Shown here: positions 37,486-64,000 of the stretch, one piece after another
Position numbering within the stretch: the first letter of the stretch is position 1
How the letters are laid out: each line of letters opens with the position of its first letter
DNA from: an uncultured Clostridia bacterium
Lineage (GTDB): Bacteria > Bacillota > Clostridia > Christensenellales > Borkfalkiaceae
Assembly: GCA_934248055.1 (NCBI GenBank)
Contig: CAKQKI010000008.1
Span: 1,835 to 65,834 of the forward strand
Length of the DNA: 64,000 nt
Direction: 5' to 3'
Translations under genes and position numbers: made by a program
The notes under the pieces: generated by a model
What the model was told of the DNA's origin: nothing
What the model saw: the letters and a program-made list of their open reading frames with translations, nothing else
The model's database searches: none

Positions 37486-37766
37486 TCGTCACCTCTAATT
37501 ACCGAAAAGGCGTCTTTTTCGCCATTTTCCGCGACCGTTCGGGCGCAGTACATCAGTACAGCAACCCTCACGCTCGCAAAAAATCATCAAAAAATGCGCT
37601 CTTTTCGGTGCGAAGCATTTTTGCGGATGAGAAACCGACCGCATCGCGGCTCGTTCAGGCAAGGCAAACGCCCGAAGTTGTACTAAAGTACTACGAGCGG
37701 CGTTTAACGCCGCATAAATCGGTTTATCACCGCAAAAATAACTATTGATGACGAATGGAATCCCTA
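37474..37766. repeat. 293-bp structured intergenic element bounded by a perfect 18-nt inverted repeat
   Basis: TAGGGATTCCATTCGTCA at 37474-37491 is the exact reverse complement of TGACGAATGGAATCCCTA at 37749-37766. The interior contains several nested stems, for example GCGGCGT-TTA-ACGCCGC. Confidence 0.7.
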
Positions 37767-57513: not shown

Positions 57514-57654
57514 TAAAAATAAACCGCGACAAAAAAAAGCCGCGACAAAAAAAACCGCGGTGACAAAATTAACCACGGCGGTAAAAATAAACTGCGCGAC
57601 AAAAAAAGCCGCGGTAAAAACCGCGCGACAAAAATAAGCCGCGCAACAAAAAAA
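57514..57654. repeat. Array of eight degenerate 14-18-bp units (A5-8 tract plus CCGCG/GCGCG core)
   Basis: Units read directly: AAAAATAAACCGCGAC, AAAAAAAAGCCGCGAC, AAAAAAAACCGCGGTGAC, AAAATTAACCACGGCGGT, AAAAATAAACTGCGCGAC, AAAAAAAGCCGCGGT, AAAAACCGCGCGAC, AAAAATAAGCCGCGCAAC. Confidence 0.85.
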
Positions 57655-57687
57655 CGCCCCGAAAGCCATTATCCTGCTTTCAGGGCG
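57648..57687 (-). terminator. Rho-independent terminator of the 530-aa gene
   Basis: On the minus strand: CGCCCTGAAAGC-AGGATAATG-GCTTTCGGGGCG followed by TTTTTTT. Confidence 0.7.
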
Positions 57688-59436: not shown

Positions 59437-59733
59437 TACGTATACTCGAATTTAAAAAATAATGATGAATTTTGATAAAAATTATATCACTTTGTCGAAA
59501 TTTTGTCAATTATTAGCACTTGCATTTCGTAAATTTTTATTTTTTTATTATTTTTCCTTTTTAGCCGCAAGCGATCGCACCTGAACTCGGTCATTTGCGT
59601 CGTGTTTTCAGGCTAAAACAAGGCGCGTGATAGAAGTAAATTAAGCAAAATCGATTTTTTAGCAGTTGACGTTTATGCTTTACAAAAACTCGTCGGCATG
59701 CTAAAATTAACAAAGAGATTAAAGGAGAATTTA

Positions 59734-61692
59734 ATGAACGACCAAGCGGTTTGGATGTGGAACTACGGCGACTACGAACTGTTTCACAACATAAAATTAC
59801 ATTCGAGAAGGCAAGAGTTCGGTATGGATTTTCCGCCGTTTTTTCCTATCGCGGGTATAACGCCTTTGGTGATTTTTTCCGCGACGGTAAACGTGCCTGA
59901 AGACGATTTTATCACGGTTAAAATAAACGGCAAAGGGAGAATCGGGGTCGATTATAAATTTTACCCGCCAGGCGACGGTATACCCGTGCCGAAAGGGAAA
60001 AGAAATATCGAAATAACCGTTATAAACGAAAACGGACTTCCCGCGGCGTACGCTTGCGGTAAGTACGTTAAAAGCGGTAACGTATTCGGTTGCTCGCAAT
60101 TTCGCGGCGATTTTAAACCTGTCGGATGCGTGCCGGAATATCGCTCGCCAACAGCGAACGTTGAAAAATTCCCGTTTAAATATCGCAAGGTTTTTCCGGA
60201 ACGAGAAGAAGAAACGGGCGGCGGTGCGCTATACGACTTTAACGAAGAATCTTTCGGACTTATCGTTATGGAAAACCTTTCATCTTCTGCGAAAGTTTAT
60301 TACGGCGAAAGCAGAGAAGAGGCTCTTTCGTGCGGCGATGCGATTTTATCGGAAAGCGTAAAAGCCGCTAAAAAAACGATTTTAAAATCAAGGGCGTTCA
60401 GATATATTTACGTTAAAGGCGCAAAGCCCGTTTCCCTTTACGCAAAACTCGAATATCTGCCGCATAAAAACATAGGCGATTTTCATTCCGACGACGTTTT
60501 GGTGGAAAAAGTATTCAAGGTCTGCAAGCACACTTTCGGATTATGTTCGAGAGAATTTTATTTGGACGGAATAAAACGCGATCGCTGGGTCTGGGCGGGC
60601 GACGCATATCAAACTTATATAATAAACAGATATTTAAATCGCGACGACGAAACGGTAAAGCGTACGATAATCGCGCTACTCGGAAAACCGCCTTATACCG
60701 CGCATATAAATACCATAAACGATTATTCGGCTTATCTTATAATTATGACGGCGGACTATTACAAAAGCACGGCTGACGCGGATTTTATAAAAGCGATTTA
60801 CCCCCGCGTAAAGGCGCTATATCTTTTTATAAAAGAACGGCTTGACGAAAACGGCTTCGTCGTAGAGCGCCCCGGCGACTGGATTTTTATAGACTGGGCG
60901 GTTCTCGATAAAGAAGGTCCGCACTCTTTCGAACAGATACTTTTATATAAAGTATGCGTTTCGATGAGAAATCTCGCTATGGCGGTAGGCGATGACGAAG
61001 GTTTTATTCAAAACGAAGCCTTACTTAAAGAAAAAATTTATCAAAAGTTTTACGATAAAGAACTCGGCGGCTTTGTTGACGGATACGTTTCGGGCAAGAA
61101 GCAAATCAGTCGTCAGCAAAACGTAATGGCAGTGCTTACGGGCTTTACCACGGAAAAGGAGAATGCGCTTATTCTCGAAAAAGTACTTAAAAACCCCGCG
61201 ATACCGCCGATAAAAACGCCCTATTTTAAGTTTTACGAACTTTGCGCGTTTTGCGAACTCGAAGAGGTAAAAGTTGCCCAAGATATGATAACCGAATACT
61301 GGGGCGGTATGCTTGCAGAAGGCGCGACCAGTTTTTACGAGGAATACGACCCCGCTGTAACGGGTATAGAAAAATACGCTATGTACGGCAACAAATTCGC
61401 TAAAAGTCTTTGCCACGCTTGGGGCTCGGGACCGATAGCGATCCTTCTTAAATACGTAGCAGGTGTTCGCCTTGACGAGAGTGGTAAAACGTTTACGATT
61501 ATCCCTTGTCCCGGTAAATATAAAAGATTTACGGCAACCGTTCCGGTTTTCGGCGGTGCGGTTAAAGTGGTTTACGATAACGGCAAAATAAAGGTTGCTT
61601 CGAGCGTTTCGGGCGGTAAACTGATAATCAACGACAAAACTTATATAATAAACGAAAATTCGTCGGTTACGGCGTGGAATGCGGAGAAATAA
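59734..61692 (+). CDS. Six-hairpin glycoside hydrolase, alpha-L-rhamnosidase (GH78)-like
   Basis: I prefer the start at 59734 (MNDQAVWMW) because AAAGGAG lies upstream. KRDRWVWAGDAY and CHAWGSGP resemble GH78 catalytic-domain motifs. Confidence 0.55.
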   Translation: MNDQAVWMWNYGDYELFHNIKLHSRRQEFGMDFPPFFPIAGITPLVIFSATVNVPEDDFITVKINGKGRIGVDYKFYPPGDGIPVPKGKRNIEITVINENGLPAAYACGKYVKSGNVFGCSQFRGDFKPVGCVPEYRSPTANVEKFPFKYRKVFPEREEETGGGALYDFNEESFGLIVMENLSSSAKVYYGESREEALSCGDAILSESVKAAKKTILKSRAFRYIYVKGAKPVSLYAKLEYLPHKNIGDFHSDDVLVEKVFKVCKHTFGLCSREFYLDGIKRDRWVWAGDAYQTYIINRYLNRDDETVKRTIIALLGKPPYTAHINTINDYSAYLIIMTADYYKSTADADFIKAIYPRVKALYLFIKERLDENGFVVERPGDWIFIDWAVLDKEGPHSFEQILLYKVCVSMRNLAMAVGDDEGFIQNEALLKEKIYQKFYDKELGGFVDGYVSGKKQISRQQNVMAVLTGFTTEKENALILEKVLKNPAIPPIKTPYFKFYELCAFCELEEVKVAQDMITEYWGGMLAEGATSFYEEYDPAVTGIEKYAMYGNKFAKSLCHAWGSGPIAILLKYVAGVRLDESGKTFTIIPCPGKYKRFTATVPVFGGAVKVVYDNGKIKVASSVSGGKLIINDKTYIINENSSVTAWNAEK

Positions 61693-62267
61693 AAATGTCT
61701 TTGGAAAGAGTAAGAGAGTATTTTAAGAAATTCGGTATTGAGAACAGAATAAAGGTATTGCCCGAGTCGTGCGCGACGGTCGCGCTTGCGGCACACGCGC
61801 TCGGTACGGAAGAAAAACGAATAGCGAAAACGCTTTCTTTTCACGCGGGCGAAAAAGTCGTTTTAATAGTTTGCGCCGGCGACGCAAAAATTGACAACGC
61901 GAAATATAAAGCATACTTTAAAACCAAAGCGAAGATGCTCGGCGTAGAAGAAGCCGCTTTTTTAGTCGGACACGCCGTGGGCGGGGTATGTCCGTTTGCG
62001 GTAAACGACGGAGTAGAGATTTATCTCGACGAGTCGCTTAAACGTTTTGATACGGTTTTCCCCGCGTGTGGCAGCGGCAACAGCGCGATAGAAATGACTA
62101 TTGATGAAATAGAAAAATATTCGGGTTATATCGCGTGGATAGACGTTACCAAACTCCCCGAATAAAGCGTTACGCCGTAAAACCGCAGACAATATGTAGC
62201 GCAAAAGCAAAGCGGCTTATTACCGTTACGCGCCGCGATTAGACGTAAACCGTATAAACAGGTATGC
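61653..62267. repeat. Left arm of a 615-bp inverted duplication
   Basis: Reverse-complement match to 63278-63892 with only scattered mismatches. The outer ~40 nt are more diverged. Confidence 0.9.
61695..62165 (+). CDS. YbaK/EbsC-type aminoacyl-tRNA deacylase domain protein, copy A
   Basis: 156 aa from MSLERVREYF. GHAVGGVCPF is typical of YbaK/ProX editing domains. Confidence 0.8.
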   Translation: MSLERVREYFKKFGIENRIKVLPESCATVALAAHALGTEEKRIAKTLSFHAGEKVVLIVCAGDAKIDNAKYKAYFKTKAKMLGVEEAAFLVGHAVGGVCPFAVNDGVEIYLDESLKRFDTVFPACGSGNSAIEMTIDEIEKYSGYIAWIDVTKLPE

Positions 62268-62385
62268 CGGACAAAAATAATTGAAGCCTTGCAAAAAGGA
62301 ATTACGTTTGACGCGCAAAGCGAAAGATAATAAATAAAAAACTGTTGCTTGTGACTTTATGGTCATGCAAATATAAGGGAATTAT

Positions 62386-63258
62386 ATGAAAATATCAATC
62401 AGATTTTTTAACGATAAAGAAGTGCGCGCCGCTTGGAACGAGAAAAACAACAGGTGGTATTTCAGCGTTCTTGATATTATCGGGGCAATCAGAAAAGAAG
62501 ATAATTACGAAAAATGCCGTAACTATTGGAAATATCTGAAAGCCAAACTGAAAAAAGAAAACAGCGAGTTGGTTAGTGCCACTACCCAACTGAAATTAAC
62601 TGCCGCCGACGGGAAAAAGTATATGTCGGACGCCTTGGATTCTGACGGAGTTATTAAACTCGCCGCAGAATTTCCGAGCAAGGTCGGCGCAGAGTTTATC
62701 GGCTGGTTTACGCGGTCGGACGATACGATTGACGGCAAAAGTAAGCAAAAAGCATACGCATTGTTTGATAGTTCTTTTATAGACGCCATCGAGATAGGAA
62801 CAGTCAAAGGCTTACAACAAATTCACGCGTATTTATTCGGCGGTTTATATGATTTTGCCGGGCAAATCCGCACGCTTAATATTGCAAAAGGCGGTTTTGC
62901 CTTTGTCCCCGCTATGTTTTTACAGGATAATTTACGGTTGATTGAAAAAATGCCCGAAGATACGCTTGAAAACATAGTAAAAAAGTACGTTGAAATGAAC
63001 GTTGCTCATCCGTTTATGGAAGGAAACGGTCGAAGTACTCGTATATGGCTCGATTTGATACTGAAAAAGAATCTTAAAAAATGCACCGACTGGAGCAAAA
63101 TCGATAAGAAGGAATACCTTACTGCAATGCAGGAAAGCCCCGTGGATTCTTCTCATATTTACGAACTTATAAAATACGCATTGACCGACGATATAAATAA
63201 TCGAGAAATCTTTATGAAAGGAATCGACTACTCTTATTATTACGAGCAAGTTGACTGA
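62386..63258 (+). CDS. Bro-N-like DNA-binding domain fused to a Fic (AMPylase family) domain
   Basis: 290 aa with the canonical Fic motif [12 protein letters not shown]. The N-terminus [31 protein letters not shown] is Bro-N/antirepressor-like. Confidence 0.8.
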
Positions 63259-63277
63259 TCTGTTTCAATGTTCAACA

Positions 63278-63892
63278 GCATACCTATTTATACGGTTTAC
63301 GTCTGATCGCGGCGTGTAACGGTAATAAGCCGCTTTGCTTTTGCGCTACATATTGTCTGCGGTTTTACGGCGTAACGCTTTATTCGGGAAGTTTGGTAAC
63401 GTCTATCCACGCGATATAACCCGAATATTTTTCTATTTCATCAATAGTCATTTCTATCGCGCTGTTGCCGCTGCCACACGCGGGGAAAACCGTATCAAAA
63501 CGTTTAAGCGACTCGTCGAGATAAATCTCTACTCCGTCGTTTACCGCAAACGGACATACCCCGCCCACGGCGTGTCCGACTAAAAAAGCGGCTTCTTCTA
63601 CGCTGAGCATCTTCGCTTTGGTTTTAAAGTATGCTTTATATTTCGCGTTGTCAATTTTTGCGTCGCCTGCGCAAACTATTAAAACGACTTTTTCGCCCGC
63701 GTGAAAAGAAAGCGTTTTCGCTATCCGTTTTTCTTCCGTACCGAGCGCATGCGCCGCAAGCGCGACCGTCGCGCTCGACTCGGGCAATACCTTTATACTG
63801 TTATCAATACCGAATTTCTTAAAATACTCTCTTACTCTTTCCAAAGACATTTTTATTCCTACGCAATCAACGCCGTAATCGACGACTTTTCG
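63278..63892. repeat. Right arm of the 615-bp inverted duplication
   Basis: See the left arm. The inner ends are GGTATGC (62261-62267) and GCATACC (63278-63284). Confidence 0.9.
63380..63850 (-). CDS. YbaK/EbsC-type aminoacyl-tRNA deacylase domain protein, copy B
   Basis: 156 aa. It differs from copy A at 4 residues (E15D, R17S, C25S, G82S). Confidence 0.8.
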   Translation of the reverse strand: MSLERVREYFKKFGIDNSIKVLPESSATVALAAHALGTEEKRIAKTLSFHAGEKVVLIVCAGDAKIDNAKYKAYFKTKAKMLSVEEAAFLVGHAVGGVCPFAVNDGVEIYLDESLKRFDTVFPACGSGNSAIEMTIDEIEKYSGYIAWIDVTKLPE

Positions 63893-64000
63893 ATTTTATT
63901 TTTGTCTGGCATTCCATTCGTCGGGGCTATCGTCGCATAAGTCAGCGAATATATCAACGGCACGGAAAAATAGCGCGTAAACATTTCATATATAAAAATA
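63859..64000 (-). CDS. 3' end of an unidentified gene running off the window
   Basis: An open minus-strand frame gives ...YEMFTRYFSVPLIYSLTYATIAPTNGMPDKNKIEKSSITALIA*. Only 46 codons are visible. Confidence 0.25.
   Translation of the reverse strand, partial: IFIYEMFTRYFSVPLIYSLTYATIAPTNGMPDKNKIEKSSITALIA

Follow-up and report, generated by a model that had tools for sequence, protein, structure and literature searches.

Near the right-hand end of a 64-kb stretch of DNA from an uncultured human-gut Clostridiales species (the window, which is part of ENA contig ERZ4568013 NODE_1800), two copies of a ybaK-like gene, here called ybaK1 and ybaK2, lie in opposite orientations on either side of a gene for a Fic protein. 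The two copies form the arms of an inverted repeat (Table 1). Repeat search and alignment gave arms of 618 nt each that are 97% complementary and separated by a spacer of 1010 nt, close to the near-identical 615-bp inverted duplication around Fic that had been described in an earlier sequence-only reading of this DNA. The window contains no other repeat of at least 35 nt above noise, and chance can therefore be excluded as the source of this one. The spacer holds the Fic gene and no other gene, as had been claimed and as both open reading frame (ORF) and Pfam analysis confirmed.

Each arm carries an intact 156-aa PF04073 ORF together with 98-102 nt of 3´ flank and 45 nt of 5´ flank. The coding sequences of ybaK1 and ybaK2 differ at nine positions, four of them non-synonymous (E16D, R18S, C26S and G83S, with Met as residue 1) and five synonymous; the earlier count of about ten substitutions was thus correct for the four non-synonymous changes, with a total of nine rather than ten and with residue numbers that were one too low. 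Over the whole arms there are 12 differing positions in addition to the diverged flank, the longest identical runs common to both arms reach 215 nt, and the outer flank is distinct for each arm. The 5´ flanks of the two arms are identical at 38 of 45 positions. In the left arm this flank consists of the last 14 codons of a gene of the GH78-like (alpha-L-rhamnosidase) family, and in the right arm it is non-coding, such that the earlier statement that the 5´ flank reaches into the last codons of the upstream gene applies to the left arm, the right-arm flank being a non-coding copy.

All of the contigs that we compared were assembled from short reads, but they come from different samples and from metaSPAdes, MEGAHIT and scaffolded assemblies. 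The arrangement was reproduced at 99.9-100% identity, completely in L001/L083, L084 and L085, and as the right arm with part of Fic in L086. Given this agreement of independent assemblies, we take the repeat to be real.

Table 1. Position, strand and basis of assignment of the features at the ybaK-Fic locus (window coordinates unless a contig is named)
Feature	Position	Strand	Basis or remark
GH78-like (alpha-L-rhamnosidase-family) gene	59698..61692	+	Pfam PF21209, PF17389; last 45 nt lie in the left arm
Left arm of inverted repeat	61650..62267	+	Native copy; 5´ end within functional gene
ybaK1, 156-aa free-standing tRNA_edit protein (YbaK/ProX-like)	61695..62165	+	PF04073, E = 1.9e-22
M1, 34-nt left-end fragment of MITE-like repeat	62264..62297	+	97% identical to left terminal repeat of L002:4308-4585
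Fic cassette (HTH relic, leader, Fic gene, ~20 nt 3´ tail)	62295..63282	+	Recurs in other contigs
XRE-HTH gene relic, last 10 codons and stop	62298-62330	+	Homology to 71-aa HTH_3 gene
Fic gene, 290 aa	62386..63258	+	PF02661; NF046029; NmFic structure match
Right arm of inverted repeat	63278..63895	-	Secondary copy
ybaK2, intact 156-aa paralogue	63380..63850	-	PF04073; D16, S18, S26, S83
Relic of last 14 codons of GH78-like gene	63851..63895	-	38/45 identical; own stop, no ORF upstream
M, 17-nt core of MITE-like terminal repeat	63896..63912	-	Tip outward; marks right-arm outer end
HTH-ADP-ribosylglycohydrolase gene, right-hand neighbour	L001:11815-12918 (just past window end); L002:2602-4188		528-aa fusion, XRE/RstR-like HTH and ADP-ribosylglycohydrolase

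A native and a secondary ybaK copy

A single ybaK that directly follows the GH78-like gene, without Fic, was found in L003 and in the metagenomic relatives L094-L096. The nearest genome is that of Clostridiales bacterium UBA11516 (L003), with 87% nucleotide identity over the gene pair only. The left arm is 92% identical to L094 at the nucleotide level, and since the match spans the 3´ flank to about +100, and the 100-nt flank is present in both L094 and L095, this flank is native to the gene. The collinearity of the left arm with the single-copy locus of the relatives is our basis for calling it the native copy. Comparison of relatives for one versus two ybaK copies and for the presence of Fic, a check that the sequence-only reading had proposed, thus returned one ybaK and no Fic, and shows the ancestral state, a GH78-like gene followed by one ybaK, as it is kept in related species. 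The gap between the GH78-like gene and ybaK is only 2 nt throughout the clade (window 59698-62165; L003:4040-6471; L094-L096), an operon-like spacing. A survey of ybaK homologues at 63-90% identity covered 80 genomes, of which only one had this pairing of genes.

Three observations lead us to regard the right arm as the secondary copy: its 5´ flank is a non-coding relic, its boundaries coincide with fragments of a repeat described below, and the right ybaK copy of L002 has lost, in frame, 219 nt that include the core of the domain. Given this deletion, the extra ybaK copy is dispensable. At the outer end of the right arm, the core of the repeat motif and the relic meet in a junction, AATGCCAGACAARAATAAAATCGAAAAG, that is identical in the left ybaK copies of strains without the GH78-like gene (L002, L123-L126 and L114-L118), and the right arm and those left copies are therefore of one origin. 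Beyond the right arm lies the gene for a fusion of a helix-turn-helix (HTH) domain with an ADP-ribosylglycohydrolase; the MEGAHIT contigs L084 and L086 both stop at one point inside this gene, about 484 nt from ybaK2.

The ybaK product scores 50.5 bits against the YbaK_EbsC equivalog model (TIGR00011), below the cut-off of 153, and its closest structures are APE2540 and TTHA1699. It thus falls within the tRNA_edit superfamily in the wide sense (PF04073) and not within the equivalog, and is a free-standing protein of the trans-editing-domain type.

A recurrent Fic cassette that has lost its HTH partner

Residues 114-288 of the Fic protein score 277 bits against NF046029 ('protein adenylyltransferase Fic', NmFic type; cut-off 230), and the Fic domain aligned end to end with NmFic (2g03, E = 1e-68) and EfFic. 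The core motif HxFx(D/E)GNGRxxR is present at residues 208-219, in the form HPFxEGNGRxxR that is common with NmFic, and the C-terminal SYYYEQ (residues 283-288) aligned to the inhibitory SYYYEG of NmFic. The protein thus resembles the class III enzymes NmFic and EfFic in its domain, its core motif and its C-terminal SYYYE(G) motif, but differs from them in having Q instead of G or N as the last motif residue, and in an extra N-terminal domain of ~110 aa that is Bro-N-like, though below threshold (19.6 bits versus 25.6 for Pfam). Assignment to class I (FicTA/VbhTA) found no support, the VbhT score being 49 bits against a cut-off of 800 and the antitoxin motif being absent from both YbaK copies. 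Fic is, as predicted from these features, a class III, self-inhibited AMP-transferase of the NmFic type, which would therefore not need a partner.

A block of ~0.99 kb that contains Fic, is 91-94% identical to that of the window, and extends from the equivalent of 62295 or about 62330 to that of about 63282, recurs in many contigs with unrelated flanks. These contexts comprise at least 10 unrelated neighbourhoods, with methyltransferases, DUF6339, a resolvase, a rolling-circle Rep, and caspase-like and TIR-like genes among them. In most of the other contexts, a 71-aa XRE-type HTH_3 gene lies directly upstream of the block; such a conserved gene precedes the cassette at L135:2719-2934 and in many of L131-L152. 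Unlike most other loci of this cassette, the window has lost the preceding gene, of which a relic remains, and the HTH partner of Fic has been cut away. The cassette itself, which in this species stands 98 nt 3´ of ybaK, was horizontally acquired. Its neighbourhoods elsewhere resemble defence islands: in L135, caspase-like and TIR-like genes come after the cassette, a context which suggests that the HTH-Fic pair is typical of such islands.

Two other indications of the source of Fic were considered and set aside. A phage or plasmid origin was not borne out, since the best match in INPHARED had 58% identity over 58% of the protein and IMG/VR contained no relatives. Base composition was uninformative as a sign of foreign origin, with 40.1% GC for Fic and 43.4 ± 4.3% for the window.

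A MITE-like repeat at the arm ends

The ends of the arms carry a 17-20-nt motif, GGWATGCCRGACAAAAATAA, at 62261-62280 (+) and 63896-63915 (-). In a motif scan, its 17-nt core (62264-62280 on the + strand, 63896-63912 on the - strand) had these two matches in the window, where 0.06 would be expected. The motif is the tip of a 278-283-bp element that resembles a miniature inverted-repeat transposable element (MITE), with 28-nt terminal inverted repeats (ATGCCRGACAARAATAATTRAAGCCTTG) and ends that read ATGCCRGACAARAATAA. Full copies are present at L002:4308-4585 and L123:3961-4241, and a cut copy at L122:784-945; they are ~90% identical and occupy different sites. Searches of Rfam found no known RNA family in the repeat or the flanks, and plasmids and IMG/VR contained no match to it. 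A further fragment of the repeat lies at 59604-59630 in the window.

Homology between the arms stops 4 nt into the fragment M1, which abuts the Fic cassette, and the outer junction of the right arm is at the tip of the fragment M. At the inner junction of the right arm, the Fic tail ends in ...TTCAACAG and passes directly into CATACCTATTTATACGG, whereas other Fic cassettes continue ...CAGTATAG. The left arm end, read as its reverse complement, is ...CCGG followed by CATACCTGTTTATACGG. From a comparison of these junctions, it follows that the join carries 4-5 nt of microhomology.

Structural haplotypes in the species

Comparison of contigs shows at least six structural haplotypes of the locus in this species. 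In H1 (the window and L083-L086), the order is GH78-like gene, ybaK, M1, Fic, inverted ybaK, M and HTH-ADP-ribosylglycohydrolase. H2a (L002, L114 and L116-L121) has a promoter-like leader, M, the relic, ybaK, M1 and Fic in the forward direction, and H2b (L115) has the same leader side with ybaK and Fic converging. H3 (L123-L127) consists of a 530-aa gene, leader, M, relic and ybaK, with a full MITE-like copy at +72 and no Fic, and H4 (L122) has the GH78-like gene and ybaK with the MITE-like repeat at +72. In a haplotype without a number (L128/L129), the side with the 530-aa gene is joined to M1 at +98, and in another (L210/L211), a different outer flank is followed by ybaK, M1, Fic, 9 nt of the arm and the interior of the MITE-like repeat. 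Left-side and right-side variants were found in all combinations, which fits recombination within ybaK between strains. Additional look-ups with ybaK variants (P0127, P0130) gave more haplotypes and no clean reciprocal junction.

The starts of the two contigs L210 and L211 (positions 1-45 of each) have features of their own. The first 29 nt are identical to an intergenic site of the window at 37738-37766, 26 kb away, and the starts also share a 12-mer, GACGAATGGAAT, with the outer flank of the right arm (63913-63924). Some strains may thus have undergone a larger rearrangement, or the shared sequence may belong to a further dispersed repeat.

Possible exchange between the arms

Among strains with the 'P-M-relic' left flank, ybaK and Fic point in the same direction in all eight H2a contigs, and Fic is reversed to face ybaK in L115 only. 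The left arm of L085 carries right-arm alleles at 61877, 61941 and 62156, with left-type alleles on either side at 61820 and 62230, and flank markers beside the junctions are swapped in L119-L121. All of these patterns (L115, L085 and L119-L121) could be mimicked by path choice or bubble popping in short-read assembly. In all three assemblies that extend across the entire locus and into the flanks of the window, the orientation is the same. Inversion and gene conversion of an ordinary kind between the arms would be plausible.

The geometry that had been put forward earlier, in which recombination between the arms flips the Fic segment and leaves Fic after a ybaK either way, is correct, as is the claim that no site-specific recombinase is nearby; none of the genes over ~10 kb to the left (L001) or ~7 kb to the right (L002) is assigned to a recombinase or transposase family. 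A scan of 61400-64000 gave no excess of promoters or terminators over shuffled sequences, and no terminator. The conserved leader of Fic (from 62295) lies inside the segment, and inversion would leave the connection between promoter and gene as it is. Because this leader/promoter region moves with the segment and Fic follows a ybaK both ways, little regulatory change is expected.

Discussion

We consider it probable that the locus is a lineage-specific, strain-variable inverted segmental duplication, formed at a rearrangement hotspot associated with the MITE-like repeat, and that it is not a gene module. The two similar copies in opposite orientation trace to one ancestral locus, as this reading implies. 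The junctions are compatible with two routes. In one, the 4-5-nt microhomology after Fic would have been the starting point of a fold-back template switch, in which the flank, ybaK and the relic were copied in reverse before the return at an inverted MITE end. In the other, a segment between two directly oriented MITE ends would have been excised and re-entered at an inverted end, with a deletion to follow. The haplotype of the window would be a recombinant in which an intact GH78-ybaK allele was rejoined to the duplicated structure, and such an origin would account for the concentration of arm differences in the 5´ part. Once present, the 618-bp arms could serve as substrates of ordinary homologous recombination, leading to gene conversion and to occasional inversion of the Fic segment with no dedicated machinery, and the extra ybaK would be redundant, with decay in some strains.

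Several observations weigh against this view of the locus. The pN/pS ratio between ybaK1 and ybaK2 is 0.23 (p = 0.03), and both copies may therefore have been under purifying selection; alternatively, the differences could stem from two inherited alleles, as several of them are common to single-copy alleles of other strains. No target-site duplications were found at the flanks of the 62264-63912 unit or of the full MITE-like copies, and no autonomous element or transposase with matching ends was found in the window, the fetched loci, PLSDB plasmids or IMG/VR, such that 'MITE' is a descriptive label here and not a demonstrated transposon. In L168, whose genomic context is unrelated, a Fic gene with 92% identity is followed 49 nt later by the right end of the repeat (678-760). 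The other Fic loci, about 588 kb in total, contain the motif nowhere else. The breakpoint in L168 differs from that in the window, and the adjacency hints that the repeat may mobilise the Fic cassette rather than merely lie next to it. The order of events is inferred from the junction sequences alone.

Other explanations account for parts of the same evidence. A repeat that lies so near a metagenomic contig end (2-3 kb) might be a fold-back chimera made during assembly, but the same structure is present in four more contigs, which come from other samples and other assemblers, and the arms differ from each other at 12 positions and in the 5´ flank and each continue into their own outer flank. 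An assembly artefact, which the sequence-only reading had named as grounds for rejecting the repeat, was thus not demonstrated, and we regard it as extremely improbable. It is also very improbable, we think, that YbaK and Fic form a functional pair, for example a toxin and its antidote, or that YbaK compensates for the action of Fic on translation. The genes do adjoin each other in this lineage and the window has two intact copies of ybaK, yet in none of the 80 genomes of the ybaK survey did Fic or another ybaK copy lie within 6 kb of ybaK, and none of 103 Fic loci (62-98% aa identity; L087-L093, L097-L112 and L130-L209) had ybaK within the 3-5 kb surveyed. The pairing is confined to this lineage, and the phylogenetic co-occurrence on which a functional link was to be judged is lacking. 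Moreover, Fic has its own C-terminal inhibitory helix motif, SYYYEQ, aligned with the SYYYEG of NmFic, neither YbaK copy contains the (S/T)xxxE(G/N) inhibitory motif, strains with ybaK and without Fic exist (L123-L127 and L122), the second ybaK is internally deleted in L002, and the literature collection that was searched contained no paper tying YbaK to Fic domains. The functional link suggested earlier is accordingly unsupported.

Recombination and mobility leave more room for debate. An invertible segment, through which recombination would switch Fic between read-through from GH78-ybaK1 and the context of the orphan ybaK2, is permitted by the geometry of the arms, and would agree with the reversed Fic of L115 relative to eight contigs with the same outer flank, with the tract of right-arm alleles (61877-62156) in the left arm of L085, and with the lack of a terminator-like site between ybaK1 and Fic. 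We nevertheless find it doubtful, as no recombinase was found nearby, the three full-span assemblies agree in orientation, L002 has a deletion in the right arm (an arm that L210 lacks, provided that its contig is correct), and L115 and L085 are possibly path or bubble artefacts given identical arm runs of up to 215 nt. A different possibility is that the ~280-bp repeat is active as a non-autonomous element, the ends of which would package ybaK, Fic and combined 1.65-kb units and shuffle them by excision and re-insertion within a gut Clostridiales population. In effect this would be a 'pack-MITE' or cassette system of bacteria for the capture of host and defence-type genes, with 618-bp arms that would also let Fic flip, and we consider it unlikely. 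Quite improbable, in our judgement, is that the 1.65-kb unit at 62264-63912 is itself a mobile insertion cassette with inverted MITE ends that carries Fic and a captured ybaK and is moved by a transposase in trans. Terminal inverted repeats are present at both ends of the unit, the two M copies facing outward, two further sites hold a full copy of the 278-283-bp element that has these 28-nt ends, and in L168 Fic is followed by the right end of the repeat in another context. Against a cassette stand the missing target-site duplications at the unit and at the full copies, the lack of a transposase or matching insertion sequence (IS) end in the window, plasmids and IMG/VR, and the length of the repeat remnants, just 34 nt at the inner end and 17 nt at the outer end. 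In addition, every contig that extends beyond the right arm (L001, L002 and L084-L086) has the same right flank.

An inverted segmental duplication, our preferred reading, has counterparts among known systems. The inverted tuf and rrn copies of enterobacteria are paralogous duplications with gene conversion and RecA-dependent inversion. The locus described here is similar in its gene-sized inverted arms of high identity, possible signs of exchange and a spacer that could flip, without a dedicated recombinase, but differs in that its arms are only 1 kb apart around a foreign gene, the second copy arose recently, varies between strains and has partly decayed, and the arm ends coincide with MITE-like fragments. 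Mobile insertion cassettes and MITEs are non-autonomous, with IS-like inverted ends and in some cases passenger genes. The 278-283-bp element with its 28-nt terminal inverted repeats at two or more sites, and the outward end fragments that bound the unit of Fic and ybaK2, are reminiscent of these, although target duplications, a second site for the unit and a cognate transposase were not found and the ends are truncated. Site-specific invertible switches such as Hin/Gin, fim and shufflons move a promoter or a coding exon by means of a neighbouring recombinase that acts on short recombination sites. As in these systems, a segment lies between inverted repeats, but here the repeats are whole genes, a recombinase was not found, and the promoter moves with the gene.

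The locus is a small hotspot of an uncultured human-gut Clostridiales species, at which at least six structural haplotypes have arisen from a ybaK gene of housekeeping type, a promiscuous HTH-Fic cassette and a MITE-like repeat. It offers a worked example of how local rearrangement can leave behind a striking gene-sized inverted repeat around a toxin-like gene without any functional pairing. Should the repeat ends turn out to move units that carry genes, the capture of genes by non-autonomous elements could be studied here in a tractable case from gut bacteria.

Other repeats near the locus

A near-perfect palindrome of about 60 nt, similar to repetitive extragenic palindromic (REP) elements, lies in the intergenic region upstream of the GH78-like gene (59562-59620 in the window). 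The same palindrome is found upstream of ybaK in strains without the GH78-like gene (L002:87-146 and L115:770-860). Farther to the left, between two genes at 57515-57665, the window has a run of 16-18-nt A-rich repeats with a GC core (AAAAAAGCCGCGACAA-like). The length of this run varies between strains, and the alignment to L123-L125 breaks within it, between 57568 and 57618.

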